Below are positions 10,230-63,550 of a stretch of 64,000 bases of DNA, in pieces. The stretch comes from Schmidtea nova (taxonomy: Eukaryota). Numbering within the stretch: position 1 is the first letter of the stretch; each line of letters opens with the position of its first letter. The notes beneath the pieces were generated by a model. That model was not told the origin of the DNA, made no database searches, and saw only the letters and a program-made list of their open reading frames with translations. The stretch lies in contig CM097882.1 of the NCBI GenBank assembly GCA_044892505.1, forward strand, positions 394,568,001-394,632,000, written 5' to 3'. A program made the position numbers and the translations under genes.

Positions 10230-10318
10230 TATGAAATGTGTCAATATTAAAATAATAATATTGTTTTAATATTAACAAGTAAAAATGTTGAGCGTTGTTT
10301 TTCAATATAATTTGCATT

Positions 10319-11500
10319 ATGAGTGAACAGACTTTTACTGGCGACCACGCAAAAGTGGAAACAATTCAATCAGTTACAAGACAACAACGGAAACTCATCT
10401 TAGAGTCACTTCCGAAACAAGTACAAGATATCTTGAATTTTAATGTCAGGAAATTCAATGGAAGAAATACAGCAGAAGCAGAACTGTGGATGAAAGATAT
10501 CGAAGATTGGCTTATGATGAACGAGTTGAGTCTATTAAGCATATTTGATTTATTATTGTCAGAAGAAGCTGGTATATTATGGAATGATTATAAAATTCCA
10601 GATATTACTGATAAAGAGGCAAAAGAATGGTTCAGTGACACATTCACAAAGAAAAGGTCGATCACTGATAGAATATATGATTTAGCAAGAGTTGAACAAG
10701 AAAAACAATGAAAGATTTGCAACTTTTGAAATTAGAATAAAAAAATTACTTGATGATATCTTCGATTGTGGATTATCCAGAGAAGAAATTGTGAGAAATA
10801 TTGTTGCCAATAGGGTCCACAATGAACGGTTAAAGGAGAATTTTGTTTCTAATGCCAAAATGTCAAGAGAAGAAATGCGAACATTAGCAAAGGTATTTGA
10901 ATCAAACGATAACACGGAAAGAAACGTGCGTATTGAAGAAATTCAAGCAGTGGATAGAAGGTCATATGCAAATGCGGTTCGAGAACGAAATTCTCAGTGG
11001 GAGCATAAAAACAAACCAAAAGCAATAGTTCAAAATAACAGAGTATTTGAACCAAACCATCAGCGCAATATAACATATCAAAATAAGCTATTTAATAGTA
11101 GTAAACCTATATCAGAAGATCAGAGAGACAGAAAAACGAATGAATATGAAGAAAGAAGACAATTACCAACCGTATCGATGAAGCATATTGCAAGGAGACT
11201 TTATAATAGATGTTGTGGATTGCCAGAGTCGAAAGAAGAGAAGTTGAAACCAGGCCAGTGTTTCTGCTGCAAGAAGAGCAATCATTTACGATTTCAGTGT
11301 CCTTTGAAAGATAGATGCTTGATTTGTGGCAAAATCGGACACACGTTTAGAGACTGCCATGTGATTAAGAAGAATTTCGAAAGGAAACAACACCAAGTAT
11401 ATTGTATACACGATGAAGAACAAGATGATTCAGAAATAATTAATGAACCCCTTTTACATGATGTAGAGTATCAAAAAACCAACGCGACCCTGACGTACAC
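10319..11500 (+). pseudogene. gypsy gag (frameshift at ~10700), two CCHC knuckles
   Basis: Contains RKFNG...AELWMKDIE, CFCCKKSNHLRFQC and CLICGKIGHTFRDC. Confidence 0.88.
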
Positions 11501-11589
11501 ATTTCGTCGATGGGCTCGAGTCAATAGGACAATCAAGAAATCGAAATGGAGTTATGAAGGATGTGATGTATATGAAGGAAGATGGTAGG

Positions 11590-14500: not shown

Positions 14501-14640
14501 GAAGAAAAATGGCGAACATACGAAGGACCTTTTGAAATTTTAAAATTCTTGTCACCAAGACAAGTAGCACTACAATTCCAAAACTCAGTAAAGACGAGAC
14601 GAATCGAATGGTTGAAGAGATGGAAATCAAATTAAAGAGG
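11590..14640 (+). pseudogene. gypsy pol (protease, RT, RNase H, integrase) with several stops and frameshifts
   Basis: Contains LWDSGASISVI, LPFGL..APATFQR, YLDD, TRKELLA, RTDHKAL, H-H-C-C, VDIAH and HQSNGLAERTIRT. Confidence 0.93.
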
Positions 14641-14758
14641 GGAAAGTTATGAAATGTGTCAATATTAAAATAATAATATTGTTTTAATATTAACAAGTAA
14701 AAAGGTTGAGCGTTGTTTTTAAATATAATTTCCATTATGAGTGAACATACTTTTACTC

Positions 14759-15363
14759 TCATTATTGTGGAAGAATCACCTTTATCCCTGCATATTTTTG
14801 AGTCAAAGCATTAGTCCAGTAAATGAAAATTCCATGGAAAAACGAGTTCCAGGAAGATTAGATCTGAACATGTCATCAAAGATTATTGATGTTGACAATT
14901 GTGTTGGTGTTATACGTTAAAATATTTCATTAATATATTTTGTTCTAGGCTGTAGCTAGGGTACACATCAACCCAAATAAATAACTTCTGATTGTATGCC
15001 CTTGTAGGTAGCCATCCAGCACGTTGGTACTACATACATCAGTCTAATGTAAGTTGCAGGTGAGCGCCTACTTAGCATTACTCACAACTTACCATTCTTG
15101 GCGGGTTCCTATGACCAATATAAGGTCGTTATAATCCCCCTTATTTAAATCTCTCTTTCTGGGTGTATTCCTTTATTATTAGGAAAACTAAGTGCTGATC
15201 TTCAGTCTGAGAATAAAATGTAAGCAAAAATTTAACAACGTTGAACCTTATGAATTTGAAGAACATGAAAACACAATTTATAATACTATACATACATTTA
15301 TTTGCCTAAGGCCTGCTAACATATACAATACAAATTGTCAGTGAATCTTGCAAGAGGGAACGT
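14759..15363 (+). repeat. Right copy of the ~604-bp direct duplication
   Basis: Matches 9626-10229. Confidence 0.92.
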
Positions 15364-15389
15364 AATGTTCTAGCATCACACATTGTCCG

Positions 15390-30767: not shown

Positions 30768-31559
30768 TGGCGTAAAAGGAGCATTTTTTACATGCTTGTT
30801 TTTAATAAACAACAACTAAATACTCGGGAGGCTTGAATGAACACTTTAATTAAGTGATTAAGATTTTATTTATTAAGAAAAAAAATAATTTTTTTGAGAA
30901 AAATATATTCCTTGTTCATTCTAGTGCATCTAGTTCACAGTGCCAAGGTATACGATTTATTCTGCCCCCCCCCCATTTCTACGCCACCGTGTACGTGTTA
31001 CATTCGAACCCCTCGAAACGTCGTTGATTGATTCTGAGAAATTGAACAGTTAAGTGTGACAAATCAATTAGAATCACATATTGTGACTGAGATACATTAT
31101 ACAGTAGAGGACATATAACCTATCACCACTTGCGTTTTTAACACTTTTAGCAAATATGTCTAACCTACAGACATCTATTTATACTTGGAAGATGTAAATC
31201 TTTACATTTCAGTGAAAGAACAAACTGGAAACACAAAGCATGTAACAAATTAGCCAAAAAAGGTTATATAAGGTTGGATGCACAAAATTCGATAAGTTAA
31301 ATAATATACAGATAAGACTTACTTATCTCAGGAATAGCAAGAATATTCCATAGGAAAAGCTCAAAAGTCATTTCAACTTGCTTTATTTATTTTACATTTT
31401 CATATAAGACGTGTTCACTAAAAAGTTCTAAAAACTTCAAAACAGCACAACTTTTATATTTTATCACATAATTTGATGAGAATTGAGACAAAATAAAAAG
31501 CAGTAACTAATCTTTAAATTTCTGGTTAGATAATTGAGTTAAGTTCCTTTTCAGAGAAC

Positions 31560-31885
31560 TGAGTGATCTTTTGTTTGAAGTGAAGAAATAAATTATGAAA
31601 GTACGTGGATGGATGGAATTCTTTTGCATTTTATGGCTGTTCTAGCTGAGCTTCATTTTTGGTTGTTCACATATTCTCATACACCTTTGCTTTGAGATGA
31701 AGTGAAAAACGTTCAATGAGGCTGATCTGAGATGGACATGAAGGGTTCATGGCTTTTTGAACAAAAGGTATATTGTTTGTTCGAAGTCATTCCAAAGTGA
31801 CAGTAACATAATGACATTGAGCAAGATCTGGCCAGAAGTTGAAATTTTCCTTGGGGTAATGGTCACTGTAGTGCATCCGTCATAT
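31560..31885 (-). pseudogene. IS630/Tc1-like transposase C-terminal fragment
   Basis: Reads FWPDLAQCHY..TLE*L..NNIPFVQK.MNP..PSQI..IE.F..HLKAKVY. Confidence 0.75.
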
Positions 31886-31901
31886 ATATCTTTATATTGA
31901 C

Positions 31902-32273
31902 GGTTGCAAATCTACATCTGAATACATTTTCTTAAAGTGCTTTATTTTCTTCTATTTTGAAATGCTGCAAGTCCTTTTTTCTTTCTCTAATATAAATTCT
32001 GCTGGTTTTATTTGGTTATTTAAACTACTCTGGTTGTTTTTATATATAAGCATATTATTAATTTAATATATATGTATATATTTAATATATTAAATATATA
32101 CATATATATTAAATTAATAATATGCTTATATATAAAAACAACCATAGTTGTTTAAATAACCAAATAAAACCAGCAGAATTTAAATTAGAGAAAGAAAAAA
32201 GGACTTGCAGCATTTCAAAATAGAAGAAAATAAAGCACTTTAAGAAAATGTATTCAGATGTAGATTTGCAACC
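31902..32273. repeat. 372-bp spacerless palindrome (186-bp arms, 3 mismatches)
   Basis: Centred between 32087 and 32088. The arms were compared base by base. Confidence 0.95.
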
Positions 32274-34362
32274 TGTTACTATTGTAGCACTACAAAAACT
32301 CAGAAGTTCAATCATGGATATTAAAAAGAACACGCAATGTTACTTAAAAAATATTCTATTAGTGTTTATTTTGTATTTTATCTTTTATCCGATCAAGTCA
32401 AATACAGAACGGGGTACAGAAAGCCAGAGCCCCGCAATTGGCATCAGAAATGAAAACTACAATCCAATGTTTCAATCACATCAAAATTCTATGCCTCCTC
32501 AATCAACAATTAATCAGCAACCTGTCCACTTTGTAATCGTAGCTTCGCAATACCAATCATATTCTAAACAACATTTGCCCATTAATACTATCAGTAAGGG
32601 GCCTATACAACGAAAAGTTCAACAAATGAGTTATCAACATCGAGCAGCATCAAATGTTAATGCACAATTGCAAATCCAACAACAACATCAAGTATCTCAA
32701 CCGATTAGTCCTAGGAGTACGGATGCTTCTAATCACCAAAGTGACATATCAGGAATTAACTATATCACAGCAGCGTCAATTTCAAGCAACGAACCGAATG
32801 ATATTATGTTCTCCGATGCAAATAACATGGCAATAAGTATTATTTATTATATTTATATTGATAAAGTTTTATTTATATTTATCATAATTTTATATATATT
32901 ATTTAATAAATTTATTTATAAAATTACCCTTCCCGATTTTTCTATTCCGCCTTTCTTCCGCCTTTAACTCCAAAACACACTCATAATCCTAACCTAGATC
33001 CAACACACGATAACGATTCTTTCCTCAAAACCACACCGATACTACCAGCCTATATACTCACGCGTTTTAATAACAAAATACGGGAAATCGCCGTTACCTC
33101 CGATCTACACACCGACATTGCCACATCGCTTCGCATCGAAAGGACTTCATTCTACGTGTCGTGCAATAGTTCTTTAGTCTCCTCTTCTACCCAGCTGCAG
33201 TCTAATTCAATCTTGGACATCAACTGTCGCATCCTAGGAGGCAGTAGAATCACAACAAAGCCATCTTCCTCGTCCGGATTCCACTCCATTCTGTTTTTTC
33301 TGGGCCCGAATCGTACATCTTCTTCGTGGTTTCGGATCTTTGAAGCGCGTACGTCTTCCTCTCCAAACTCACGAGCAGATCACTTCCTCGACATTTTACC
33401 TGCTGAATTGATAGCCGAACTAGCTCCAAAATTCGCTGATGCTCTTGACGCAGGAAATCAATACGAAGCCTAAAAAATTTAATTACGACCAAATACACTT
33501 CTTCACAAGCCCAAGCTCTGAAAAAACTTTTGGCGCCACAGATTTACTCAGGCCAACAACCTAGTCTCTTTTAAAGAGAGATAGTTCGTTGAAACGATGC
33601 GTCAGTACCAGATCTTTCTAAAAATGCACCTCTATTGACCCACCAATTCCTTTCTGCACTGCCCTACTATCTACAAACTTTGCTGGCATTGGTTGACTCC
33701 GAAGATCCATATCACCTCGCGAAGATCGTTGACCGCATTCACGCATTGCGCAGATATTTACGCAACACCTCCACTACCCCCACCGTTAACGCAGCGCATA
33801 CACATCACCACCCTTTCCCTTGGACAGTTGAAAGATATCCCAACAACACTTCACCATCACATGATGCACAGAATCCCAATCACCCTACCAACAAAACGCA
33901 CACAAAACATGCAACCCAATAATAGCGTCACACTAATCTGCTTTTTCCACAGTAGATTAGACAACATGCACAGAAATGCTGCATCGGTTGAATGTCCGAA
34001 TTCCGTACACATCAGAATCCAATCATCCCAGTGTGTATTCACCATCACCTCTACAAGAACGAAGCCAGATCGTGCCTCGACGGATGCACCTGGCGCACAC
34101 GCGACGTCCACCCTTCAAAAAGCTAACCCAGTCATCGGACATTCCTGGACGCCCCGATAACTTACCACCAGTGAATCAAAATTTTCACAACAAACCACGT
34201 CCAACGCACATTCTATCATCTCCGCAAGCATACTAAAAAGAATACTAAAAAGAACAAGCAATGTTACTTAAAAATAAATATTCTATTAGTGTTTATTTTG
34301 TATTTTATTTTTTATCCGATTAAGTCAAATACAGAACAGAGTACAGAAAACCAGAGCCCCAC
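32274..34362 (+). mobile_element. Non-autonomous gypsy-type element: LTR pair and decayed gag only
   Basis: Direct repeats at ~32325-32436 and ~34248-34362, with PBS-like TGGCATCAG after the first. The gag reads WF..FEA..HFL.ILPAELI..YEA*K, FLSALP..LQTLLA..LAKIVDRI and CFFH.R. No pol is present. Confidence 0.75.
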
Positions 34363-36531: not shown

Positions 36532-39500
36532 CAGGCCCAGAACCCAGCCCGATGCAACTTTCTGTTAAGCGCTTTTTATAGGAAATTATGTCATAAAAAA
36601 ATTCAAATTTCACAGTAAAGTATTATAATTTTATTATTAAAAATATTTACTGAATAATTAAACATTAATTCATAAAAAAAATAAATAGAAATCTGATATA
36701 TATATATATATATATATAAATTAGAAAACCACAATGTTTCATTTAAAATTTTATTTTTCTTGCTTTTATGGAAGCAAATTCATCCAATACATCATTAATT
36801 TTGATTTTGTCACAGATATCGTTTTCAATAGCAATCAAAGACAGGTCAACTAGTCTTTCTTGAGAAATGGTTGATCGTAAATAATTCTTATTTAGTTTAA
36901 GTCTGGAAAATGATCTTTCGCCAGCTGCTACTGAGACTGTTAGTGTTAATAATATTCTCACAGATACAACTATATTTGGAAATATATCAAATAAATCATT
37001 TGAATAAATATACTGCAATATATCTAATGGATCAAAACTATTAAGTTGAGTTATGGTGTCTTTAAATATACACAGTTCGTTACATAATTCTGAAGAACTT
37101 ATATCTATATCTTCACCATCAGTTAACACATTATGTAAATCTGTACATTTATTTCTTAGTATCTCATTATCCAAATTATAAATTTCATTAAAATTTATGA
37201 AAAATTGAAACTTTTCGGCATGACTATTCATAAGTTCAAATCTTTCGACTATTGAGTTAATTGCACTGTCAACAATTTGAAGAAAAAATGAAATTTTATA
37301 GTTTTTTTCCGGGTCTGTCGGACTTTCATCTCGACATTCGTAGTTAAACATACGTTTTTTACGCCTACGTAATGGATTTTCTTTAAATTGAGGAGCTATG
37401 TCAATATCATGTGCCAAAATTGTAGCTTTTTTAAGTATATTATTAAAATTTTCATCTAAACGAAATTCTTTAAAATAAGTTACTAAATTATTTAAACTAT
37501 TTGTTGATTCATTTAGGTTGGTACTTGAAAATTGAAACATCTTGCTCACAACATTAATCTTGCTTAAAATGTCGTACCAAATTATCAGCGAACAAACAAA
37601 TTCGTAGTCAAGCTTCAATGCCAAAGATTTAGCTTCAGATTTTGTGTTGTTGTCATTTCTGTCATTATCATGGATGGCAAGTAAAGCGTCTAAATAATCA
37701 CCAATATTGTTTTTTAATGGGCTAACAGCATCAATTCTTGATTTCCATCATGTATCCAATAAAGGTTTAAGCGTTATTTTGCTATATTGTTTTAAAACAT
37801 CCCACCGTTTTGTGGAAGCACTAAAAAAATTATATACTTTTTGTATAATGCCAAAAAAAATTATAGTTTCTGTATTAACTTTAGCAGCATTACATACTAC
37901 TAGATTCAATGTGTGAGCTGCGCATGGTACACAAATTGCTCGAGGGTTCTTATCCAAAATGCGTTTTTGAACACTCTGTGTTTACCACGCATGTTAGAGC
38001 CATTATCATAGCCCTGTCCACGTAAGTTTTTTAAATTTATATTTAAATCTTCTAACTTAGCAACTATGCTTTTAAACAAACCTTCATCAGTAGAATCAGC
38101 TATTTCTACGAAACCCAAAAAATGTTCTTCTACAGTAATTTGATTGCTTTCGTTTTTATGGACAAATCTGATAATAATAGTCATTTGTTCAGTGTGACTG
38201 ATATCAGGAGTGCAATCTAATATTATTGAAAAATATTTGGCATTTGTCACCATCTGGACAATAGCGTCGACTATTTTCTTTGAAATTAAGGATATTATTT
38301 CGTTTTGAATATTTTTTCCTAAATAATGCACTGTGTCCTTTTGAGTATTCTGAATTTTTGCGAGATGGTTTTCCATAACCATATCAAATTTAGAGAATAG
38401 TTCAACTAATTTTAAGAAATTACCATTGTTATTTTGGAAAATAATATCTGACGAGCCTCGAAGAGCTAAATTTTGTTTAGCGAGATATTTTATTATTTCA
38501 ACAATTCGTTCTAACACACCGCGCCAATGTCGTTTTTATCTTTCACATACTTTTTCAAGTTCACTATCTATTGTGCTAAACTTTTCTAATCGTTTTTTTA
38601 CATCAACCCACTTTATAAATGATGTTAAATGGGATTTAGTTACTTCATGACTACTCAGAGTTTTTGATAAATTTTGCCAATTTGAGTAACCATCTGTGGT
38701 CAAAGAACTTGTTCCACCTGCAAATAATTTGCAACATGAACAAAAAACACAATTTATAGAACATGAATATATAAGCTATGTTCGCGAAACAGTATCTTTA
38801 TTTGCTATCTTACGATAGTAATAGTTATTACTAAAACTACGACCACAATCGTCTCGAGGATATAATTTTTGTTCTATCGGTATCATCGAACCTTGCTCAA
38901 TAATAATTTCCCGAAGTTTGTCATTTATAACTTTGGGCCAAGTAGCTGGATCATTTGATTTAAATGAAATCAATACTTCATTTTCCCTCACTGTTTCACT
39001 TACTGTTCCTGAAGTTTTTTGGGGTGATAAATGTAAATTAGTTTCACATTCTGTGGTCAACGTGATAGCGATATTGTTATATCCTTCGTGTTGATGTGGT
39101 AAAGTTAAGGAAGGTGAATCAATAACTTTTTGGACTGTAAATGAATGTAATTTTTTCGGTCCATTACTGTTTGCAGAAATTTCATCCGTTTTTTTAAAGA
39201 ATTTGTTTATTTGACCTGTTAACTTCTTTTGTTCCGTATCCCTTATCGCTTTTCTTTTGCGGTACTCTGCTCCAGATAATTTTTTTCTCCATTTTTTAGT
39301 TATACTGAAAAGAATTTAAAATTAAATATAAAAATGGTGGTGAGCGTCACCTCAATTAATATTTAGGATTCTTTATTGAAAAAATAATAAACTCTAAGTA
39401 AAAATAAAAAAATCACTATAATATACTTACATTCACAAAAATTTTGTTATTCAAGAAATTACACTTTTTAAACTTTTTTATTAAATATTTCACACAACAA

Positions 39501-42257: not shown

Positions 42258-44598
42258 GGTTCTAAGAAAAAATGGTACGGACAAAATAGTACGGACAAAA
42301 TGGTATACGGACAAAATAGTACGAACAAAATGGTACGGACAAAATATTACGGACAAAATGGTACGGATAAAATGGTAGTAGGATAAAATTAAATAATGGA
42401 TAAAGTAGTATAGCTTTGAGTCTATTTAAATATAACAACAAGTTTTATTTTTCAGTTATAAGAGCTGTAATGGGTAATTACTCTAATACATAATTATATA
42501 ATACATAGTATATTACTTGTAAGATGTATTTATATAAACTATTCATATTTATAGCATTTACATTTATTATTTGAATGTTGTGGTATATTGAAATTGTTCG
42601 AAATATTATTAATATTTAAATTAATTCTCCATATATGAATTAAGAAAATACGTTGTTTAAATAAAATATATTATTCACGTCTTTGAATTTGTTGATGTAT
42701 AAAACTAAAACGAATCCTAACATTACTGATAAGAGAAACTTAGCAAGTAAGTAGGTTAGGTTGCATTTAATTATCATAAATGTCATACGCATTCACATGA
42801 TTGTAATAAAAATTCAATACAAAAATTTAGACTAGTAAAAGAAAAATATATGAAAGACAATAAATTAGTTAGAGTTATAAAAAATTAATGTCAGAAATCT
42901 AAGACTTATGGTTTATTCAGTTATAAGTATTCGTATATTCTTATGAACTGTTGCAAAAGTCACTGTTAGACAACATCTATATTGAACACTCGTGCAATAT
43001 CTCCCAGATATGTAATCGAATCTCGGTTGTTTAAATCGGTGACCATGGTGTGAAGTGCTTCATTGATGCAAATGAATTCTTCTTATTTCCAGTTGTTGTT
43101 CCTAGCTCCAGTTGACAGCTATGAAATTGAGTGCTGTGCTGCTCCTGTTGTAGTTTTCGTGCTAATTTTGTAACGGATGGATTAGCAAAGTCAATGACGT
43201 TGTTGAAAGTATTTTGCCAGCCTTCTAATGCATTGTTGCTGCGAGGCAGGTCGTCGTTGAATATTGATTCCACAGTCGAATTGCAAATTTTGACTAACCT
43301 CTTCTTCCTCGTCTTTACCTGCCGATGAAATTTTCCTCCATATAATTGCAAATTGCCTCAATTTCTTGATACATAAAATCCGCAGTTAGAGTTTCAAAAA
43401 CTTGTATTACTTCATCTGCAGGAATAAATGCAAGATCAAAAAGACGTACGGATAGTAATGTGTAGACTACAGAAAAAACTTCTCTATTGCGAAAACCGTG
43501 TATTGTATATAATTGTTCAAATCCATTTTGGACTACTCGAAATGTTCCATCAGCAAACTAATGTTAGCACCTGGAAAGGAAATCTAAATCAACGTCTGCT
43601 GCAAAGAAGATTAGGTTATTTCATTTGACACGGATGAATGGACGGTTGCTCTTTGTCAGAAAATAAAACATACTATCCTGTTGATTATTTTTTCCAGCCA
43701 GTTGCTGGAGTCTTGGTGCAGCTCGTGATAAAGTCGGAAGATTTGGAATTAGATGAGCTGATGCAAATGGGACGTTCATCAACTCATTCTGAACAATCGA
43801 ACGCATTGCTTCTTTACTTGCTTTGGCTCTCCTTTTCATGTTGCGACTAGCCCTTTCAACATTGACTTGTCCATGAGTTACTGTGTGATTGTGAACTCCA
43901 ACTTCAAGAACAATCGCATCTACCTGTGTATGAAGTCGTGCCTTATACGTTCTTCTTTCACAACGCCACAGCTCCTTGCCATCACTGCCATCGGTGTTCT
44001 TGCTAAACAAATAACCTTGAACTATCAGCTTTCAAGTTCCTTTTTGAAATATAACAAATTCTAATAATGCTAAAAATTAAATAAATTATAAAAATAATAA
44101 ATCTAATAGTAAATATTAATAATTAATAAGCTTCAAAGTTATTAATTTATAAAAGTTCGAAAGTTGCAATCGAGTTAATTATTTAAGTTATATTTAAAAC
44201 AATGCATTTTCATTTGAATCTTTTAGTTTAGAATCTTTAGATCGAAAATCATATAAACAAATTTTAGCACGGGTAAAAATAAAATAAATTAATAATAAAT
44301 CTAATAGTAAATATTATTAGTTAATACACTTCAAAGTTAATAATTAATAAAACTTCGAAAGTTTCTATTGAGTTAATTATCTTAGAGTATTTAAGTTATA
44401 TTTAATAAAATGTATTTTCATTTGAATCTTTTAATTTAGAGCAAAGGTTAGGTCATATATTAATATATTTTAAAAATGTACCATTTGTCAATATACCATT
44501 TTGTCCGAACCATTTCGTTCATACCATTTTTCTCCGTACCATTTTGTCCGTACCATTTTGTTAGTTCCATTTTGTCCTATACTATTTTACCGGCCACC
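42258..44598 (-). mobile_element. Second FLYWCH-MULE (transposase ~44066-42966, decayed)
   Basis: GGT...ACC ends with TSD AACTAGTT (42250-42257, 44599-44606) and terminal arrays of AAAATGGTACGGAC. The protein is collinear with the 22890-24180 copy. Confidence 0.9.
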
Positions 44599-49291: not shown

Positions 49292-49753
49292 GGTATTATG
49301 ATCAGTACAAAATGNNNNNNNNNNNNNNNNNNNNNNNNNNNNNNNNNNNNNNNNNNNNNNNNNNNNNNNNNNNNNNNNNNNNNNNNNNNNNNNNNNNNNN
49401 NNNNNNNNNNNNNNNNNNNNNNNNNNNNNNNNNNNNNNNNNNNNNNNNNNNNNNNNNNNNNNNNNNNNNNNNNNNNNNNNNNNNNNNNNNNNNNNNNNNN
49501 NNNNNNNNNNNNNNNNNNNNNNNNNNNNNNNNTTTTATTTTCTCTTCTTCGCGCCTGTGTGCGCAGTGGTTAATTTTGAAAGAATGATAATTTTGGTTAT
49601 CACGTCTGTGTGCGTGGTCGTATGTTTGTTTATCGCGTCTGTGTGCGCGTGGGTAATTTGGTTGTTGTTTTTGTGAAATTGATTTTAATTTTTATTTAGA
49701 TTTGGTTTTTAATTGAATTTCAAAAAAATCTAGGTGTTTAAATAATCAGTAAC

Positions 49754-50533
49754 ATGTTGGTTTTTCAAAAGGGAGTTTCGCTCAAATTAATGGTGACATG
49801 GTCTGAAAGTCAACTTTGTGATTTGGAGGAATTTGGCATTGAGAATGAGGTTCCAGTTGATTATAATTCCTTTATTTGTGTTAGTGATGAAAATACGTCA
49901 ACGGATAACGAGAAAGAAGAGGCGTCGGAAGATTATTCAAACATAGACGAATCAGGCAATGATATTAATAATTACGAAAATGACGATCTCAAGCAGCCTT
50001 GTGGAGATAATTCAACACAAGAGCAGGTTTTTAAGAGTTTAAAGGAAATAATAACTAAAACCAGTAAATCGCTTAAAAGAAAACTTGATGACGTCGATGG
50101 AAACGATAAAGATGTGAAACGAACGAAACTCGATGAAGACAAAACCGAATGTAAGTGTTTTAGAGTTATCCTGAGAAAAGATGCCCTGTATGTGCTGGCG
50201 AGTGAGATGAGGCCATTTGATATCGATGAGAGGAATTACAAAAGAAAACTTTTATTGGCAATTCTGTTACAAGGAGCGTCGAAGAGCGAAGGAGAAAATT
50301 GTTACTCGCTGGAATTAATTGGATTAATCAAATATTCTTGTCAGAGTTCCACGGCGGAATCAGAGAGCTGGTTGTCGATTAAATCCGATCTTTCTCATAT
50401 ATCGAGTGATCACATAATCAATATTTCTGGCGAATCAACTGACAACAAGTCCTTAGAAACAATCTCTATCATATATCATGTAATAAATCTTCTGATTTCG
50501 GTCATTTCGGTCAACAAAGAATTGTCAAACTAA
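49754..50533 (+). CDS. 259-aa ORF in the 5' LTR (acidic N-half, bipartite NLS-like KRK-x10-KRTK)
   Basis: The ORF is intact and its translation is identical to the 3' LTR copy. The frame continues past the TAA to 50821. Confidence 0.6.
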   Translation: MLVFQKGVSLKLMVTWSESQLCDLEEFGIENEVPVDYNSFICVSDENTSTDNEKEEASEDYSNIDESGNDINNYENDDLKQPCGDNSTQEQVFKSLKEIITKTSKSLKRKLDDVDGNDKDVKRTKLDEDKTECKCFRVILRKDALYVLASEMRPFDIDERNYKRKLLLAILLQGASKSEGENCYSLELIGLIKYSCQSSTAESESWLSIKSDLSHISSDHIINISGESTDNKSLETISIIYHVINLLISVISVNKELSN

Positions 50534-50914
50534 CATTCTTGGTTTGTGCCATTTTTGGACATATTCCGGCGATTGACGGCACAAATATTGACTTACTGTG
50601 CATTACACGGGTTGAATGGAATTATCAATGCTGTTTATTTAGTTACGGAAACTAATAAAGATTGTTCTTTGGTCGTTCAATTGATGATTTTACATGGTAG
50701 CAGAGCGTGGTTCCCACCGGGGGGCCACGCACACTCTGGAAATCTGTTAGTATACATTTTTATTAAAGATTCTATTATGTTTTTTGTCAATTTTTATAAA
50801 TGGGTTAAATTTGTAATTTGAGTATGGACCAACATTCCCTCCCAAGCGCGTTTTGAATGGGAAGTGAGGTTAGGGGATAAGAGGCGAAAGTTGAAGGTGA
50901 TTAATGAAAGGTAA

Positions 50915-53900
50915 GTGAAAGTTGGAATGGCTTGGCCACCGGATATTGTGAAAGACGGCTGCTATGGGCCCCAGCATTCTTTTAAATTCCGGGATAACAT
51001 TGGTAGGGAAGGTGCTCTTAAGAGGTATATGCATATGGTTCGACAAGCGAGACAGGAAAGGCAAATAATTTTAAAAGCTTTAACGGGAAAACCCATCACT
51101 TTAGAAGTCGCATGCAGCGATACAATTGAAGGCGTGAAAGCTAAAAATAAACAAATATCATTTAATGAATCAAATAGACAAAGAGGAAAAATGGTGTCAC
51201 CTGCTTATGAAGCAACATGTATAGAAAAAGATAATTCGGTAGTTAAAGGTGAAAAGGTTAGTAGGGGCATTGGCTATGACAACGAAGATTTTTTAATGAA
51301 TATCGGCCGGAAAATGTTGCAACAAGATAAAAGTTTGAAAGGCTTAGAACCTTTTGTAGGAATAAGGGGAGATAAAGGTAATTATAAAAAGTTCTATAAT
51401 CAAATTATTAAAAATATTAAATTGGGTAATCATGAAGACAGGGTGAATATGAATAAAATAGGGGAATTATTGAGTTTTTATTCAATAGCAAGTGGTGATG
51501 AAAGGACAAGTTTAAAGGATAATAGTTCGCGAGTGAAAGAAAAGGAAACGGAGTCCACTTTACATTTTGTTTTGCGATTGAGACGTGGAATACAGATTTT
51601 TGTTAAGACTCTAACAGGTAAAACCGTAACACTGGAAGTTGAACCGAGGGACTCTATTGAGAAAGTAAAAGCAAGGATCCAAGAGAAAGAGGGAATCCCG
51701 CCTGATCAACAGAGATTGATATTTGCAGGTAAACAATTGGTAGGCGAAAGAATCCTGTCAGATTACCACATTCTAAAGGGGTCTACTATTCATCTGGCAC
51801 TGAGATTGTGTGGAGGGAATGATGAAGAGGAGGAATTAGAGGAAGGATTGAGAAAGAAGAGGAGTGTCAAATATAGATTGACGAAATTAAGAAACAGATG
51901 GATGAATGATATGTTGGCAGAAGATGCAACACATGTCCTTGATGAATATCAGGAAGCTATGGAAAGTGCCATAGAGAGTTTTGAAAGATTGGTGGATATT
52001 AGTAAAAGATTAGGAAGGTCAGATACAACATCGGGGCTAGAAGCGGATTTACAAGAGATAGAAAATAAGAACGAGAAGGTGGAAGAGTTGATTTCGTCAA
52101 AGGCCAATCAGTCAGTTAGGTCGGATGACAGTAATACAATTAAAGAGGTAAATGGAAACGAAACGAAGAAAAGACTAGAAAAGATGCAGAAGATACGGAT
52201 CCAGATATTTGATGGACACCAGAAAGAATATGAAAGTTGGAAAGCTGCTTTCCATACTTGTGTTGATAGTGCCCATGGAGATGATGATGAAAAGATGTTA
52301 CACCTTCGATCCTATCTGAAAGGTGAACCGCTAAGGTTGATCGAAAATTTAGGATTTTCTGCAACGGGTTACAAAATGGCAAAGGAAAAGCTTGATAAAA
52401 GATATGGCGGGGAAAAACGAAATTACTTAGCTGCTCTGGAAGATATCGACAGGTTCCGACCCGTTCGGGAGAATGAAATGCTGGAAATAGAGGCATTTGT
52501 TGGACTATTGGAAACGCTAGAAGTTAGAATTATTAATAATAGACGAGAGGGCGAAATGAACAATAGTTACTTATTGAAGAGATGCCTGCAAAAGCTACCC
52601 AGTTCGCTGCTATACAAGTGGAAGAAAGATTTTAAGGAGGGAAAGGTAACCGAATGTATCCAAGATTTGAGAAATTGGTTACAAGATGAAGTCGAGCTGT
52701 TAAGATCAACAAGAGAAACCCTTTATGGAGTCGGTGATGGCAATAGAAGAAACGATTGGAAGAGGCAGGATGGACCGTCAAGAGAACTTGGGAATCTAAG
52801 GCAAGGGAACCGGACACTTGTTGGGCAAGTAGCAGATTGGAAGGAAGACAAGACAAACATACCAAGAGACGGATTGTTGAGCACAAAGTTGAAGTGTTGG
52901 AAATGCAAGGAAAATCATTACTTGGATCAATGCAGAGAATTCAAAGAAATGAACCCCGCAATGCGACGTAAAGCAGTAGGAGACTGGAAGTTATGCTTTA
53001 ATTGTTTAAAGTCTAATCATGTAGCGTCGGAATGTCGAAAGGCTTCATTCTGTACTAGAGAGGGGTGTAAGCTGAAACACAGTAACCTACTGCATGTGGA
53101 TCAGTCAGAGTCCAAAAGGAAGGAAAACACATTGATGTCGGCTACTAAAGATGAATTATTAAAAAAGGAGCGAAAATACCTAAGCTTGAGGACCATACCG
53201 ATCTACCTTGAGCATGGAGCGAAGAAAATTAAAGTAAATGCGCTGTTAGACGATGCAAGCTCCATTAGCTACATAAGTCAGAGTATTGCAGACGAGTTGG
53301 GTCTAAAGGGGAAAGAGGAAATAGTTCCTGTGAGCGTCATCGGAGGTCATATTCAAAATATGACAACAAGAATAGTCACGATGACGTTGATAAGTTACGA
53401 TCAGAAGATGAGGAAAAAGTTTACAGCTGCAGCGGTGAAGAGTGTAACCGGGGAAATGCGAGTGATAAATTGGGCAAAGGAAAAATGGAAATGGGAACAT
53501 CTAAAGGATATACGGTTTCCAATGCTTGATGAACGACAAGTGGTGCAAGTTCTTATTGGAGCTGATTATTTAGGTTTGCAAAGAGCGCTGAAGGAAGTGG
53601 ATGGAAAGATGGACGAACCAATCGCTAGATTAATTCCGCTTGGTTGGACCTGTGTAGGTGGAAATACGTTGGGCGTGTCATTGACCCACCAAACCAATTT
53701 TGTTCAAACGTATTTATCCAAGGACGAGGAGTTAGTTGGACAGGTAAAGTTGTTCTGGGAAATCGAGAACTTAAAGGAGAACCCGGTGCTCTTGACCAAA
53801 AGGGATCGTGAAGTTATTAAAATTACGGAAGAAAAGATGGTTAACAGAGGAATGTTTTATCAAGTGAGTTTACCGTGGAAATCTGGAAAAGAAGAGTTAT

Positions 53901-56900
53901 CAAATAATACACAAATGGCAATGAAACGCCTAGAAAGTTTAAAGCAAAAATTAGATAAAAATCAAGAGCTGAAGAAGGAATATGAAAGAATTTTGAAGGA
54001 TCATGAAAGTAAGGATTACATTAGGAGGTTAAGTGAACAAGAAAAGGTGGGAACGAAGTGGATGTTACCTCATTTTCCCATTGTAAGAAAGGAAAAAGAA
54101 ACGTCGAAGGTCCGAATTGTATTTGATGCTGCAGCAAAATGTAATGGAAAGTGTTTGAATGATGTTTTGGAAACGGGACCGAAATTGCAAAATGATCTTT
54201 TCGAAATTTTTTTAAGATTCAGACGGTTTAAGGTAGCCATAGTAAGCGATATCGCCGAAATGTATCTACAAATAAGAATAGCAGAAGAAGACAGACCTTA
54301 CTTACGATTTTTGTGGAAAGAGGGTGAGAAGATTGTGCAATTTGAATTTTCAAGACTAGTTTTCGGGTTGAATACGTCCCCGTTTCTTGCACAATATGTA
54401 ACCCAACAACACGCGAGAAGATATGAAAAAAGTTACGCAAGAGCGGCGGAGACCATAATAAAATCTACATACATGGATGACAGCATTGACTCAGTAGAGA
54501 CGGAGGAAGAAGCGCTAATTCTTAAAGAGGATCTGAAGTTACTGTGGGCAGAAGCAGGAATGAGGGCAAGAAAGTGGATGTCAAACTCGATTAAAGTAAT
54601 GGAAACAATTCCGATCGAAGAACAAGCCAAGTCGTTAACAATAGAAGAAAATAGAACAGTCACGATGAAGACATTGGGGATGTACTGGCTTGCAACGGAC
54701 GATTTATTGAGATTTGAAGGACGAACGGCAGACAATGTGAAAATCACGAAAAGAATGTTATTAAGTTGGATAGCACGTATCTTTGACCCTTTGGGAATGC
54801 TTAGTGCATTCACAATTGTTGGCAAATGCCTAATGCAAGAAGCGTGGATGATGGGAAGCAAGTGGGATGATGTTTTACCCCCAGAATTACAAAAAAGAGC
54901 GAGATGTTGGATGGAAGAATGTGAATTATTGAATCGAGTAATGATTCCAAGGAGATTATTGGGGAAGCAAAGCAACCCGTGGCGCTTACATGTATTTGTT
55001 GATGCGTCTAGTACTGCCTATGCAGCGGTTTGTTACCTTAGGGAAGAAGAGAGCGCCAAGGTTAAAATGAAATTTGTTGCGGCACGAGCAAAAGTAGCTC
55101 CAGTTAAAGTAATCACCATTCCACGATTGGAATTGATGGGCGCCTGTTTGGGTCTAAAGTTAGCTAAGAAGGTTGGAAAGGCGTTACAATATGAATTGAA
55201 AAATGTCATGTTTTGGACTGATAGTCAAGATACCTTGCACTGGATTCGTCATCATTCAAGACTATGGAAAACATTTGTTGCCAACCGAGTGAGTACCATT
55301 CAGAACGAGACAGATGCTGAACAATGGCGTTACGTTCCTACCAAGAGCAACCCAGCAGATATAGCTACTCGGGGAATGTCGGCATCAGATCATATGGGAG
55401 ATAATATGTGGTGGGAAGGACCACCTTTTTTAAAACACTTTGAAAGAAATTGGCCAAAAACGAAATTAGATATACAGGTAAATGAAAATAGAGAAAGAAA
55501 GCAAGCGACATTTGTCATAAATTTAGAAGAAGAGCAACCTGGAAAATATCAAGTAAACTGTTGGCAACCTGAAACCTATTCATCGTGGAAAAGATTGCTC
55601 AGAGTAAGAGCATGGGTGCATAGATTCGCAAATAATTGTCGAAACAAAAAGGAACTCCGAAGTGGGGAGTTAACAACCGACGAAATCAAAAAGATTGAAG
55701 CGATAGTAATTCGAGAGGAGCAAAATGAGATCTTTAAGGATGAGATACGAGAGTTAAAAGACGGAAGACCATTGTATAAAAAGAGCAAAATACTGAGTTT
55801 GAATCCAATGCTCGATGAAGAAGGATTACTCAGGAGTAACAGTCGAATCATAAATGCAGAGTTCATGACATTAGAAGCAAGATACCCGATAATATTAAGT
55901 GCAAAACGATGGGTGACTAGACTGATAATAAGAAAATATCATCAAGACAGAGATCACTGCGCCGGAACAAATCATTTATTAAGCGATCTGCAGGAAAGGT
56001 TTTGGATAACGCAACCTAAAAGAGAAATCAAGAAGGTGGAATTTGAATGCCTAATCTGTAAAAAGAGACGAGCTTCTGGACAGTCCCAGAAGATGGCTCC
56101 ACTACCTGCATTTCGATTGACGGAACCATTTAGACCATTTGGAAAAGTGGGGGTTGATTTTGCGGGCCCATTCTTAACAATCCAGGGCCGAGGAAAAGCG
56201 AGGCTAAAGAGATATGTGTGTTTGTTTACATGTTTACAAACTAGAGCAGTGCATCTGGAATTAGTGTACGGGCTAACAACGGATTCATTCATACAAGCTT
56301 TAATAAGATTCATTGGGCGACGAGGAAAACCAGGGTTGATGTTATCAGACAACGGTACTAATTTCGTTGGAGCAACGGGGGAATTGAAAGATGTGATAAT
56401 CGATGGTTATAAGATAACGAAGGAGTTGACAGCTCGGGAGATAAGATGGGTGTTTAATCCGCCAGCCGGGCCACATTTCGGAGGGGTTTATGAAGCGTTA
56501 ATAAAATCGATGAAAAGAGCTATGTCAGCAATAGTTGGCAATGCAGATATTACAGATGAAGAGATGCTGACAGTAGTAGCACGGATTGAAGGATTTTTAA
56601 ATGCCAGACCGTTGACGACAAAGGGGGATGATGAAAAAGGACTTGAAGTACTGACACCTAACCATTTTTTAAAGCCCAGATGGTCAGAAATCGAGACTAA
56701 TGAAATAGAAACTAATAAGAAAACTAATATTTAGCGGCGATGGAAAAGGACGGTAGAGTTAACCAATCAAGTATGGAATAGATGGAAAAGAGAACTTGTG
56801 CCGATATGGATAAGCAGAGCCAAGTGGAGATCAGATCAAGAAGAGTTAACAGCAGGTCAGTTAGTGTGGATTTTAGATAAAGAAAGCGAAAGTGTTGGAG

Positions 56901-57082
56901 AATGGCCATTGGGGAAGATTACAGAGTTAATGATGGGAAGCGATGGACGGACACGGGTAGTAAAGATGTGGAGTAAAGGGAAAGAGGTGATTCGCCCAAT
57001 ATCTCAGCTTTGCCCCTTGGAAGTAGAAGCAGAGAAGCAAGAAAATTTTAAAGAAAAAAAGGGGTTGGCAGAAAAGGAGTAA
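50915..57082 (+). CDS. BEL/Pao Gag-Pol polyprotein with ubiquitin/Hsp90-derived leader; one in-frame TAG at 56732-56734
   Basis: Has a DUF1759-like gag ([16 protein letters not shown]), three Cys-His knuckles, protease ALLDDAS, RT YMDD, RNase H LHVFVDAS, integrase H-H-C-C, GVDFAGP, SDNGTNF and GGVYE. The C-terminal domain continues in frame to 57082. Confidence 0.95.
51263..51541 (+). other. Captured Hsp90 middle-domain fragment in the polyprotein leader
   Basis: [42 protein letters not shown] aligns ungapped with cytosolic Hsp90 [49 protein letters not shown] (about 36/57 by manual alignment to the remembered human sequence). It is preceded by [17 protein letters not shown], versus SEDLPLNISREMLQQSK. 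Confidence 0.9.
51590..51817 (+). other. Complete ubiquitin unit fused to Gag; partial ubiquitin pieces at 51059-51145 and 51551-51589
   Basis: [34 protein letters not shown] matches canonical ubiquitin at 59/76 positions by manual count. Confidence 0.97.
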
Positions 57083-57357
57083 ACAAGGAGAGTTGACGAG
57101 GAGTCAAAAGGGGGGAATGTTCGTCTGTGTGTGCATTTTTATTTTCTCTTCTTCGCGCCTGTGTGCGCAGTGGTTAATTTTGAAAGAATGATAATTTTGG
57201 TTATCACGTCTGTGTGCGTGGTCGTATGTTTGTTTATCGCGTCTGTGTGCGCGTGGGTAATTTGGTTGTTGTTTTTGTGAAATTGATTTTAATTTTTATT
57301 TAGATTTGGTTTTTAATTGAATTTCAAAAAAATCTAGGTGTTTAAATAATCAGTAAC

Positions 57358-58137
57358 ATGTTGGTTTTTCAAAAGGGAGTTTCGCTCAAATTAATGGTGA
57401 CATGGTCTGAAAGTCAACTTTGTGATTTGGAGGAATTTGGCATTGAGAATGAGGTTCCAGTTGATTATAATTCCTTTATTTGTGTTAGTGATGAAAATAC
57501 GTCAACGGATAACGAGAAAGAAGAGGCGTCGGAAGATTATTCAAACATAGACGAATCAGGCAATGATATTAATAATTACGAAAATGACGATCTCAAGCAG
57601 CCTTGTGGAGATAATTCAACACAAGAGCAGGTTTTTAAGAGTTTAAAGGAAATAATAACTAAAACCAGTAAATCGCTTAAAAGAAAACTTGATGACGTCG
57701 ATGGAAACGATAAAGATGTGAAACGAACGAAACTCGATGAAGACAAAACCGAATGTAAGTGTTTTAGAGTTATCCTGAGAAAAGATGCCCTGTATGTGCT
57801 GGCGAGTGAGATGAGGCCATTTGATATCGATGAGAGGAATTACAAAAGAAAACTTTTATTGGCAATTCTGTTACAAGGAGCGTCGAAGAGCGAAGGAGAA
57901 AATTGTTACTCGCTGGAATTAATTGGATTAATCAAATATTCTTGTCAGAGTTCCACGGCGGAATCAGAGAGCTGGTTGTCGATTAAATCCGATCTTTCTC
58001 ATATATCGAGTGATCACATAATCAATATTTCTGGCGAATCAACTGACAACAAGTCCTTAGAAACAATCTCTATCATATATCATGTAATAAATCTTCTGAT
58101 TTCGGTCATTTCGGTCAACAAAGAATTGTCAAACTAA
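57358..58137 (+). CDS. 259-aa ORF in the 3' LTR
   Basis: Translation is identical to 49754-50533. Confidence 0.6.
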   Translation: MLVFQKGVSLKLMVTWSESQLCDLEEFGIENEVPVDYNSFICVSDENTSTDNEKEEASEDYSNIDESGNDINNYENDDLKQPCGDNSTQEQVFKSLKEIITKTSKSLKRKLDDVDGNDKDVKRTKLDEDKTECKCFRVILRKDALYVLASEMRPFDIDERNYKRKLLLAILLQGASKSEGENCYSLELIGLIKYSCQSSTAESESWLSIKSDLSHISSDHIINISGESTDNKSLETISIIYHVINLLISVISVNKELSN

Positions 58138-60529
58138 CATTCTTGGTTTGTGCCATTTTTGGACATATTCCGGCGATTGACGGCACAAATATTGACTTAC
58201 TGTGCATTACACGGGTTGAATGGAATTATCAATGCTGTTTATTTAGTTACGGAAACTAATAAAGATTTTTCTTTGGTCNNNNNNNNNNNNNNNNNNNNNN
58301 NNNNNNNNNNNNNNNNNNNNNNNNNNNNNNNNNNNNNNNNNNNNNNNNNNNNNNNNNNNNNNNNNNNNNNNNNNNNNNNNNNNNNNNNNNNNNNNNNNNN
58401 NNNNNNNNNNNNNNNNNNNNNNNNNNNNNNNNNNNNNNNNNNNNNNNNNNNNNNNNNNNNNNNNNNNNNNNNNNNNNNNNNNNNNNNNNNNNNNNNNNNN
58501 NNNNNNNNNNNNNNNNNNNNNNNNNNNNNNNNNNNNNNNNNNNNNNNNNNNNNNNNNNNNNNNNNNNNNNNNNNNNNNNNNNNNNNNNNNNNNNNNNNNN
58601 NNNNNNNNNNNNNNNNNNNNNNNNNNNNNNNNNNNNNNNNNNNNNNNNNNNNNNNNNNNNNNNNNNNNNNNNNNNNNNNNNNNNNNNNNNNNNNNNNNNN
58701 NNNAAAATAAGCCATGCAGCAAAATGTTCACTTAGTAAAAATTTCTAGCAAAAACTTTTGTTGTTATTTAATAATTATTTAATTATTAATTATTGCTACT
58801 GAGGAGAAACCTCCATTTTATATTATTATTCATATAAGCTTAAATTGAATTTTTTAATTGAGAAAAGTTGAAAAAATTCAAAGTCTAAAATTCATAAAAA
58901 AGTCTAAAAATCAATATGCCAAAACTAGACAAGATATTGTGTTTCTTTTCCATTTAAAAGTTAATAACGTTAATAATTGTTATTTTACGATACCGTATAT
59001 GAAGCATTAAAATGAAATTCCAGAACTTTTATTCTAATATCTTTCTGTTATACAATCTGAGGTGTTTTAATATCGTTATTCGAGTCTAGCACTTTGTCAA
59101 ATATCCGATGGCAGCCTCCAGTCAGTGTATCATTGACTGTAAACGTTACACAAAAGTGGATGATTTGAATTTTGTTATGTATCGAAATCGAGGTGGTATA
59201 TCGCATAACATGCATTTATTATTATAATTAGACGCTTTTAAATCGTAATAATGGTAGCGAAAATATTCGAACTTTCTTGTCGACCAAACGAAACGACAAT
59301 TGTCTCATTTGAATAATATTATAATGAAGAATATGTTATAATTTAATTTGCTTTTATAATTAGAATAAATAATTGAATGATACTGAACGAGTCCTTTACT
59401 TGGGTTTGACTGTTTTGTTAATTAATTGTTTTAATTTGTTGCGGAGTTATACAGTTACTATTCTGACATTGTTTATGAAAATCTTGTCGTTGCAATTCCA
59501 AACATTTCTATTGTAATCCAGGCAGTGGTGGTTCTTTATTGATAGGTGTACCCGAACCCTCGAGTCTAGGGGACATGATTACAAATGCTAGGACTCACTT
59601 GGCAGCTGGACAATTTGAATGAATGAAATACGTTACAAAATGATTTGAGAAAGCTCAAATAAATATTAAGAATAGGTTTGTATAAGAAATAAAATTCAAT
59701 TTAAAATTTAAAATTTAAATTTTTTTTAACCAAGAAAATGTTACATTTTATATTTAATATATATTTTAATTTCTTTTTAATATTTATCGCCGCGCCGTCT
59801 AAGTTGCCAATTCCACGATTCTCACGGCAGTTGGAGGACGTTTTCATTGAGTCGTCGATCACTTTCAGGACAGGTTGGAAATCTGGATTAATTTAGAATA
59901 ATTTATTTATGCTTTTAACATTTGATAATCAAAATATGATTAATACAAATTTGATTAATACAATTGAAGAAAAAACACAGATAATTTAAAAGCGGATGGA
60001 CTGAAAATTTGCATTTATAGCAAATTCGATAGGTCTTCTAACATGTTTGATTTGTAATGACATTGTCTAATAATAAAAAATTAAACATTTGTTGGGGTAT
60101 GCCTGAACCGACACAAAATAAAATACATGTTCAAATCAATAAAAACATAAAAATCTAAAAAGTAATAATTAAAATACAATAATTAAAAAACAATTTTGAA
60201 AATTAAAAATAAAGATTTAGCGTTTGAAACTGAAATGGGTGGATGCCAAATGATCAGGCGTATTCAAAATCTAAAAAGAGTCCACAGAAAGAAATAATTG
60301 TAAGATTAACAAATTAATTAAGAGTTAATTGGCCAATGGGAAACCCGAGCCAATGGGAAACCCGATCAGTGTGAAAAACCCGGACGATCAAGAAGATAAT
60401 TTAATCAACTCAAAGAAAATTGATTTTATGGAAAACCTCAGAACCCGATTGATGGTAAAGTAATTATCTGAGGAAAATAATCTATTTCTAAATTTGAAAT
60501 GAAGTAGATAGTAGGGAAGACCCAGGTAA

Positions 60530-62339: not shown

Positions 62340-63550
62340 ACGTGGAACAATTTCCTTAGAGTGAAGATTTATTTGTTTAATATATAGAGTCAGTTGGTAT
62401 CCGATTAGTTGATTTAACTAGTAGATTGTGGATAGAATCAATTGATATTTAATAATTAACTAGTCTGTTGTTGATTTATGAATAGTTAGTTGGTTAATGA
62501 GAAGAGTTAGTTGGGAAGTAAGGAATTGGTTAGTTAGTTAGTTAGTTGGTTAATGTAGTTGGTTGGTTGGTACAAGAATAATGAATAGAACTAGTTGGTT
62601 AGTAAGAGATTAGTATGTATAGCTAGTTAGTTGGTTAGTGTATTTGGTTGGTTAGTATAGATAAAGTTAGTTGGTTAATGTATAGAACTAGTTGGTTAGT
62701 AAGGAATTGATTGCTGGTTAGTTAGTTAGTTAGTTGGTTACTTGGTTAATGTGAAGAGATAGTTGGTTGATGTATAGAACTAGTTGGTTAGTAATGATTT
62801 GATTGCTGGTTAGTTAGTTAGTTAGTTACTTGGTTAATGTGAAGAGTTAGTTGGTTAATGTATAGAACTAGTTGGTTAGTAATGATTTGATTGCTGGTTA
62901 GTTAGTTAGTTAGTTACTTGGTTAATGTGAAGAGTTAGTTGGTTGATGTATAGAACTAGTTGGTTAGTAATGAATTGATTGCTGGTTAGTTAGTTAGTTA
63001 GTTGGTTACTTGGTTAATGTGAAGAGATAGTTGGTTGATGTATAGAACTAGTTGGTTAGTAATGATTTGATTGCTGGTTAGTTAGTTAGTTAGTTACTTG
63101 GTTAATGTGAAGAGTTAGTTGGTTAATGTATAGAACTAGTTGGTTAGTAATGATTTGATTGCTGGTTAGTTAGTTAGTTAGTTACTTGGTTAATGTGAAG
63201 AGTTAGTTGGTTAATGTATAGAACTAGTTGGTTAGTAAGGTATTGATTGCTGGTTAGTATGTATAGTTAGTTAGTTGGTTAGTATAGATAAAGTTAGTAA
63301 GTAAGGAATTGTACTATTTGTTAACTAAGGGGATTGGTTTATTTGATATATAGGCAATAGGAAGTGATTGACACATGGAACAATTTCCTAGTTGGTTAAT
63401 ATATAGAGTCAGTTGGTAACTTGTAAGTAACTAATCGATTGTTGATTTGTGGATAGAGTCAGTTGGCATTTGATCAGTTACTAGTCAGTGGTTGATTTGT
63501 ATGTGTAATGAGATTATTAGTTATTTGATCGGTTTATTGCTGGTACTTAG
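62340..63550 (+). repeat. C-poor (GTTA/GTTG) minisatellite with 88/92-bp units (core 62680-63240)
   Basis: Unit starts at 62680, 62772, 62860, 62948, 63040, 63128 and 63216. Related flanks TGGAACAATTTCCT..ATATAGAGTCAGTTGGTA lie on both sides. Confidence 0.92.

Follow-up and report, generated by a model that had tools for sequence, protein, structure and literature searches.

How did a fragment of Hsp90 come to lie in frame between pieces of ubiquitin at the 5' end of a retrotransposon, and is it of any use to the element there? This question is raised by a 64,000-nucleotide stretch of Schmidtea nova DNA (contig CM097882.1, positions 394,568,001 to 394,632,000, forward strand), which is called the window herein. 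The fragment is probably passenger cargo. It was likely template-switched from hsp90 mRNA and is part of a variable in-frame leader of a Bel/Pao element, the Gag of which is likely freed by a predicted deubiquitinase cut.

Architecture of the element and its copies

The window copy is an LTR retrotransposon of 8.8 kb that belongs to Bel/Pao by its Pfam families. Its features are compiled in Table 1. With an offset of 7604 nt between them, the LTRs agree at 1140 of 1141 comparable bases; hence, the insertion is young. Bel/Pao elements are characterized by a single Gag-Pol frame, the order protease-RT-RNase H-integrase, and Pao-type families. The window element exhibits all three, as judged by Pfam and motifs, in addition to paired LTRs with TG...CA ends (two window LTR ends being placed from the offset), a primer-binding site (PBS), and a polypurine tract (PPT). 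The PBS, presumably of the initiator tRNA-Met type, lies upstream of the leader in 83 of the 99 copies of family A, meaning the family of the window copy after six tandem-array siblings were dropped. Landmarks of Gag-Pol are DUF1759, zinc knuckles (52895, 52994), the protease (53243), the RT motif YMDD (54470), a Peptidase_A17 region, the integrase (55919-56494), and DUF5641. Herein, Pfam recovered DUF1759, RVT_1, DUF5641, and Peptidase_A17 (E 3e-47), with the Asp protease and Integrase_H2C2 below cut-off. A single frame extends from position 49742, within the 5' LTR, across the PBS and the ubiquitin to the end of Gag-Pol at 57082, broken in the window copy by three stops. The in-LTR reading frame of the window gave no Pfam hit over cut-off, and its PAC1 assignment is drawn from the siblings L105 and L025.

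Table 1. Features of the window copy, in the order of their positions in the window
Feature	Position	Strand	Basis and remarks
5' LTR	49514..50694	+	~1181 nt; ends ...TTACA; start reads N, placed by the 7604-nt offset to the 3' LTR
In-LTR reading frame, in the Gag-Pol frame	49742..50694	+	263 aa of cargo; stop 50531-50533 (both LTRs); short PAC1/PSMG1-like remnant
Primer-binding site (PBS)	50695..50712	+	Sequence; translated in frame as HGSRAWF
Leader, in the Gag-Pol frame	50713..51061	+	In-frame stop 50912-50914 in the window copy
Ubiquitin N-piece, residues 2-24	51062..51130	+	Host polyubiquitin unit 1; remnant of a second ubiquitin capture after deletion
Segment X	51131..51256	+	Degenerate out-of-order Hsp90 piece, host residues ~528-569
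Hsp90 middle-domain fragment	51278..51550	+	Host residues 375-474 with 9-aa deletion; 99-aa slice
Hsp90/polyubiquitin junction	51545..51553	+	9 identical in-frame bases (QKE) in the host genes; diverged in the window copy
Ubiquitin tail, residues 64-76	51551..51589	+	Polyubiquitin unit 2; decaying pseudo-site ending RRG
Complete ubiquitin fused to Gag	51590..51817	+	PF00240, E 1.4e-30; ends LRLCGG; predicted deubiquitinase cut after 51817
Bel/Pao Gag-Pol	51818..57082	+	Pfam and motifs; in-frame stop 56732-56734
Polypurine tract (PPT)	57106..57117	+	Sequence
3' LTR	57118..58298	+	Starts TG; repeats the cargo frame; end reads N, placed by the offset

The genome comprises 1.25 Gb, with three chromosome-scale contigs. 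A first look for the leader segment returned 892 candidates, which are not to be equated with copy numbers; 150 were scored, and all of these are at least 81% identical. The Hsp90-bearing segment is free of stops in 147 of the 150. An assembly artefact is ruled out by the 150 scored copies, which lie on three contigs. Target-site duplications of 5 bp were found in the siblings L113, L118, and L129; the ends of the window copy read N. The LTR pairs are 99.2-100% identical in 14 of the 15 siblings measured, and the remaining one shows 98.6% over a partial alignment. AAT/ATT-type repeats flank nine of the 15 paired-LTR siblings (L109, L111, L114, L118, L124, L125, L132, L134, and L140), which suggests a target preference.

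Abundant derivatives (L108-L124) are devoid of RT and integrase and consist of a single open frame of ~1200-1870 aa with a long charged segment at its end. They are likely non-autonomous and often occur in tandem arrays. Elsewhere in the window, a degraded second LTR element lies at 9626-15367, with repeats ~5.1 kb apart (96-98% identity) and pieces of protease, RT, RNase H, and integrase. The minus strand carries hAT transposase remnants (Dimer_Tnp_hAT, DUF4371) and a FLYWCH zinc-finger piece at 1039-1881, 36746-38535, and 43624-44031. In addition, 31902-32273 and 62362-63480 hold a 186-nt inverted repeat without spacer (98% complementary) and a satellite with a period of 88 nt.

Origin of the Hsp90 and ubiquitin pieces

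The segment 51146-51550 (135 aa) matches PF00183 with E 1.3e-16 and residues 386-488 of human Hsp90-alpha with E 3e-21, with 36 of 57 identities in the best ungapped block. This bears out the original prediction of an in-frame Hsp90 middle-domain piece, which shares its reading frame with Gag-Pol and with the ubiquitin-like pieces that flank it. Its upstream deletion, put at ~10 aa, measures 9 aa in the alignment. The match is confined to profile positions 184-282 of 518; it includes neither an intact Hsp90 domain nor the C-terminal MEEVD. The donor is the host hsp90 gene L062/L063, not the paralog L061, with nucleotide identities of 77% to the window and 87-92% to older copies. This donor gene is doubled (G000:C2, 39.47 and 39.69 Mb), and the two copies are inverted and 99.9% identical over 3.6 kb.

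Segment X had been proposed as a second, out-of-order Hsp90 piece. When aligned freely and locally to host Hsp90, it does not reach significance (shuffle p 0.19-0.42). In copy L102, Hsp90 residues 486-527 stand directly before segment X and fix an ungapped register. In this register, X matches host residues 528-569 at 57 of 126 nt (shuffled mean 44, p 0.007), and its BLOSUM score was reached in 0 of 5000 shuffles, which upholds the proposal. In L091 (4860-5414), segment X is joined to Hsp90 375-512 without a ubiquitin junction. This copy branches outside all ubiquitin-joined copies, and its arrangement is a possible intermediate.

The junction between the Hsp90 fragment and the ubiquitin tail sits where codons 473-475 of host hsp90 and codons 62-64 of polyubiquitin unit 2 share nine identical in-frame nucleotides, the kind of junction microhomology that had been proposed as a check. 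In-frame 9-mer matches are rare, with 18, some of them overlapping, among 692 x 228 codon pairs. The junction fits microsimilarity-driven template switching (cf. PMC5131818). The donor has no intron in codons 1-667; a single coding intron is found close to the 3' end. Intron loss is therefore uninformative for the window fragment, for which we infer an mRNA origin.

Other captures do span introns. FKBP6 cargo is missing 7/7 spanned GT-AG introns and begins 16 nt before the host start codon, and RNA polymerase subunit cargo is missing 4/4 introns and begins 10 nt before it. The copy L094 contains a separate hsp90 capture that begins within the 5' UTR, reaches the same QKE codon, and is devoid of the ~51-nt GT-AG intron before the start codon. 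This spliced hsp90 (L094:4045-5500; G000:C53, about 31045-32500) ends at codon 475, is 94% identical in nucleotides, lies between LTR-start sequences, and is joined at the QKE codon in frame to the 3' segment of the element. The capture is recent, with the assembly caveat that L094 is a single copy on a small unplaced contig. The junction microhomology, the spliced sibling cargo and hsp90 capture, and the second Hsp90 piece agree with a mosaic leader built by serial template switching onto host mRNAs, as initially proposed. The further label of stress mRNAs suits Hsp90 and ubiquitin and is too narrow for cargo that includes the RNA polymerase large subunit, an ABC transporter, and an FHA protein.

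The two ubiquitin pieces that flank the Hsp90 mosaic stem from different units of host polyubiquitin. The N-piece is 84% identical in nucleotides to unit 1 of L076 compared with 72% to units 2 and 3, and the tail is 90% identical to unit 2 (39/39 in copies L088 and L096). The Gag-proximal ubiquitin is not assignable to one host unit, being a mosaic that is unit 2-like in old copies and partly unit 3-like in young ones. Upstream of the N-piece, no match to a host 5' UTR was found. A more complete arrangement is seen in L102. Its first ubiquitin is nearly complete (Pfam 1-68) and precedes, in this order, a spacer, Hsp90 486-527, segment X, and Hsp90 375-473. The window junction is derivable from this form by a deletion between two similar short stretches.

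A census of 150 loci yielded 105 copies with the Hsp90-tail-ubiquitin anchor. Their leaders contain the N-piece (49 copies), an upstream segment "Y" (47), a longer Hsp90 of residues 287-475 (three), neither (five), or the L102 form (one). For the segment upstream of X in Y-type leaders no donor was found, as the genome search gave 150 full-length hits that are apparently element copies and the Atlas no usable hit. A tree was built from 46 of the copies with two host genes as the outgroup. Herein, the Y and long leader types branch earliest and possess the Hsp90-tail junction without the N-piece, and 22 of 22 N-piece copies fall into a nested clade (100/98). The leader type switches ~10 times on the tree, as expected with recombinational leader swapping.

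These data bear on the geometry first proposed, namely one Hsp90 mosaic inserted mid-unit into a captured di-ubiquitin. The window pieces do read in order as Ub 2-29 and Ub 64-76, and the N-piece is common, not counting its longer form in L102. This single insertion is nevertheless highly improbable and already contradicted, by flanks from different host units, by the longer precursor retained in L102, by the earliest-branching copies, and by a sister family (family B) that has the tail behind different cargo.

Exchangeable cargo, selection, and the ubiquitin spacer

The Gag of family B is ~39% identical to that of family A and is preceded by the same tail-plus-ubiquitin. Its leader combines residues 235-439 of mitochondrial Hsp70 (PF00012; 94% nucleotide identity to host L148) with part of a glutathione reductase (E 9e-14). 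The Hsp90 leader also occurs in a third Gag lineage (22-29% identical). Within the LTRs, in-frame host fragments differ between otherwise close copies. They comprise FKBP6/Shutdown-like, TCP-1/CCT, PAC1, proteasome alpha, HECT, ANAPC2-like, and NEDD8 E1 subunit pieces, and further ABC transporter, FHA, and RNA polymerase large subunit pieces; 16 of 36 LTR cargo stretches gave no hit in the Pfam search. The FKBP6/Shutdown-like cargo (best PDB hit human FKBP6, E 1.4e-15; a shutdown-like homolog) is the commonest, occurring in 27 of 83 family-A copies. It co-occurs with the Hsp90 piece and can contain both PPIase and TPR regions. The corresponding host gene lies at G000:C1, about 69.284-69.291 Mb. 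In L111-L124 and L201, both LTRs contain a spliced FKBP6/Shutdown-like piece that is almost full-length and includes its own start codon.

Selection was assessed in the 99 family-A copies and in 34 of 40 family-B loci. These copies are related to one another and were taken from the top hits; the counts are therefore interdependent, and the p values err on the optimistic side. For variants shared by at least two copies, the omega of Hsp90 is 0.88 (93 distinct copies, p 0.54) compared with 0.25 for Gag 1-94 (Fisher p 4e-6). The other family-A values are 0.61 for ubiquitin, 0.54 for FKBP6 (nominal p 0.045), 1.55 for PAC1, and 0.59 for CCT; those of family B are 0.88 for mitochondrial Hsp70, 0.65 for the reductase, 0.20 for ubiquitin (p 1e-4), and 0.21 for Gag. 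A subset of 82 copies gave 0.66 for Hsp90 (p 0.07), 0.97 for X, 0.54 for ubiquitin, and 0.15-0.25 for Gag. Because single-copy variants give 0.45-1.0 for most segments (FKBP6 0.61), a segment omega near 0.6 is not clearly constrained. The ubiquitin of family A is weakly constrained, with p 0.03 and 0.08 for its omega of 0.54 and 0.61.

Compared with the host gene, the window Hsp90 fragment exhibits 33 non-synonymous and seven synonymous differences, with an omega of 0.98 and dN and dS each ~0.17. The 375-473 piece gave 0.54-1.38 in 16/16 copies tested, and the host hsp90 branch is very short on the tree. No purifying selection on Hsp90 residues was detected (omega ~0.9-1, apart from the one subset), and the suggestion of neutral cargo fits these values. 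Older Hsp90 pieces in other copies (287-374 and 486-525) have an omega of 0.20-0.27 against the host at high dS, which could be past constraint. Across six cargo segments, stops make up 0/383 shared vs 16/499 single-copy variants (p 1.3e-4). For Hsp90 alone, this deficit is marginal (0/158 vs 5/158, p 0.06). Since the Hsp90 residues are near neutral and stops are absent among shared cargo variants, selection acts on the frame, including its LTR part, but not on the Hsp90 residues.

A complete ubiquitin ending in Gly-Gly stands directly before Gag. Both motifs are readable in 92 of 99 family-A copies; of these, 86 have GG at the end of the Gag-proximal ubiquitin, and 40 have it at the end of the upstream tail. 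In family B (29 of 34 copies), RGG ends the Gag-proximal ubiquitin in 27 and the tail in one. The simplest reading, by analogy, is a predicted deubiquitinase cleavage at the ubiquitin-Gag junction as in pestivirus insertions, where the inserted ubiquitin is cut by host hydrolases (PMC8310069) and mosaic inserts with ubiquitin have been reviewed (PMC13517609). In 66 of the 92 family-A copies, the window copy included, the ending is CGG instead of RGG, with Cys at position 74. Given the role of Arg74, a CGG ending may impair deubiquitinase cleavage.

In other species, searches for a ubiquitin-Gag fusion were swamped by polyubiquitins (among the best 120 of 2622 and the best 150 of 39288 matches). 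In a Gag-only search, none of the 15 homologs carries PF00240, which is weak evidence. The closest outside Bel/Pao polyprotein (P0125, an ENA record; 37% over Gag) carries an LxLKGG-like stretch at its start, immediately preceding Gag, which points to a possible ubiquitin-like fusion elsewhere.

Explanations for the cargo and its relation to known systems

The observations can be combined into a mechanism as follows. Host mRNAs would be co-packaged in the particle, and during reverse transcription the template would switch between hsp90 and polyubiquitin at the 9-nt microhomology. Translation would start in the LTR and read through the PBS and the cargo to Gag-Pol. Host deubiquitinases may then cut after the fused ubiquitin and free Gag. 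Because the N terminus of Gag would be the same after this cut regardless of the upstream sequence, the element would tolerate any capture that is in frame and amplify it along with itself. Passenger cargo is supported by a frame that is kept open while the Hsp90 residues drift and by the Gly-Gly retained at the Gag junction. The prevalent Cys74 and the weakly constrained family-A ubiquitin count against the cleavage; the lower Hsp90 omega of the 82-copy subset, the marginal stop deficit of Hsp90 alone, and the low omega of the older Hsp90 pieces count against drift.

An unlikely alternative is that the cargo acts as RNA against silencing. Host sequence in the 5' end and the LTRs would camouflage the element from piRNAs or turn small RNAs on host hsp90 and FKBP6/Shutdown, and cargo turnover would be selected without any need for protein conservation. 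Neutral protein evolution is compatible with this, the FKBP6/Shutdown-like piece is the commonest LTR cargo alongside the Hsp90 piece, and Shutdown is described to work with Hsp90 in piRNA biogenesis (PMC3463805). The drift of the Hsp90 piece from the host nucleotides, however, erodes both mimicry and targeting, family B amplifies carrying mitochondrial Hsp70 instead, unrelated genes are among the cargo, and the FKBP6 count comes from a biased sample of one recent burst. Quite improbable is a protein decoy, whereby a released leader of Hsp90, FKBP6, and other proteostasis fragments with a C-terminal ubiquitin disturbs the chaperone and ubiquitin pathways of the host. Many cargoes do belong to proteostasis (CCT, PAC1, proteasome alpha subunit, HECT, ANAPC2-like, and NEDD8 E1 subunit), and the FKBP6 piece combines a nominally significant shared omega with PPIase and TPR regions. 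This omega is not distinct from the method background set by its single-copy variants, though, and the decoy, also raised in the original prediction, is opposed by an Hsp90 omega of ~1 and the 9-aa deletion in 66 of 99 copies. In addition, the 99-aa slice is devoid of the MEEVD that TPR domains bind (PMC3463805), and neither mitochondrial Hsp70 nor PAC1 is constrained in omega. A broader proposal, which is rather doubtful, sees a Bel/Pao clade running a hypervariable host-derived 5' cassette as a strategy by means of the ubiquitin spacer. Captured mRNA 5' ends would provide start codons and hide the LTR from piRNAs, and the pieces of Hsp90 and FKBP6/Shutdown, partners in PIWI loading, would blunt silencing in the most successful lineage.

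The passenger cargo has parallels in LTR-mediated retroposition as described by Tan et al. 2016 (PMC5131818), which likewise yields partial host mRNAs, multi-gene chimeras, sense orientation, and further amplification rounds. The junction microsimilarity has a median of 6 bp there and is 9 nt in the window family. The retrocopies of that study lie between discontinuous LTR-element flanks at few sites. In the window family, by contrast, at least 150 scored copies have the cargo in the LTRs and the leader, in frame through the PBS and with a ubiquitin spacer, and the elements retain Gag or, in some cases, all of Gag-Pol. Cytopathic pestiviruses (BVDV Osloss, CP1, and CP Rit; PMC8310069, PMC13517609) similarly carry host ubiquitin, often with upstream host fragments, immediately ahead of a product of the polyprotein. 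The pestivirus insertions occur sporadically in an RNA virus, and their cleavage has been shown, whereas the ubiquitin of the window family is a fixed trait of several retrotransposon lineages with cleavage predicted. The giant Burro/GYPSM1 elements of planarians (PMC6431247) also contain host-like ubiquitination and apoptosis domains in frame in an LTR-element polyprotein. They are of the Gypsy type with stable, intact domains, as opposed to a Bel/Pao type with recent, fragmentary, and swappable cargo and with donors in the same genome. Pao-type Pfam families, domain order, LTRs, PBS, and PPT agree with the survey of BEL/Pao elements (PMC3118150), in the main text of which the word ubiquitin has no occurrence. 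An extra domain in LTR elements is also described for the orchid AlkB (PMC9289625). The capture mechanism and extra domains in LTR elements are thus already known, and the Hsp90 piece alone is ordinary cargo; the surrounding system is more interesting. A literature search, the coverage of which did not extend to Repbase reports, most subscription journals, and supplements, did not find this combination of ubiquitin fused to Gag and mosaics of host mRNA in the LTR and leader described.

Capture of mRNA by LTR elements is known, usually in the form of rare, non-autonomous retrocopies. Herein, Gag appears to be made independent of the preceding sequence by the ubiquitin spacer, with the result that captures remain in frame and reach many copies in young lineages. 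If true, this would be natural ubiquitin-fusion processing in a retrotransposon, parallel to that of pestiviruses. The copies constitute an extensive, dated archive of the mRNAs that enter retrotransposon particles and of the sites at which reverse transcriptase changes template. They allow a direct test of whether elements gain from silencing-pathway sequence. For the genome, they inflate the gene counts of Hsp90, Hsp70, ubiquitin, and FKBP6 and confound read mapping and RNAi design, and they are a steady source of host-gene chimeras.
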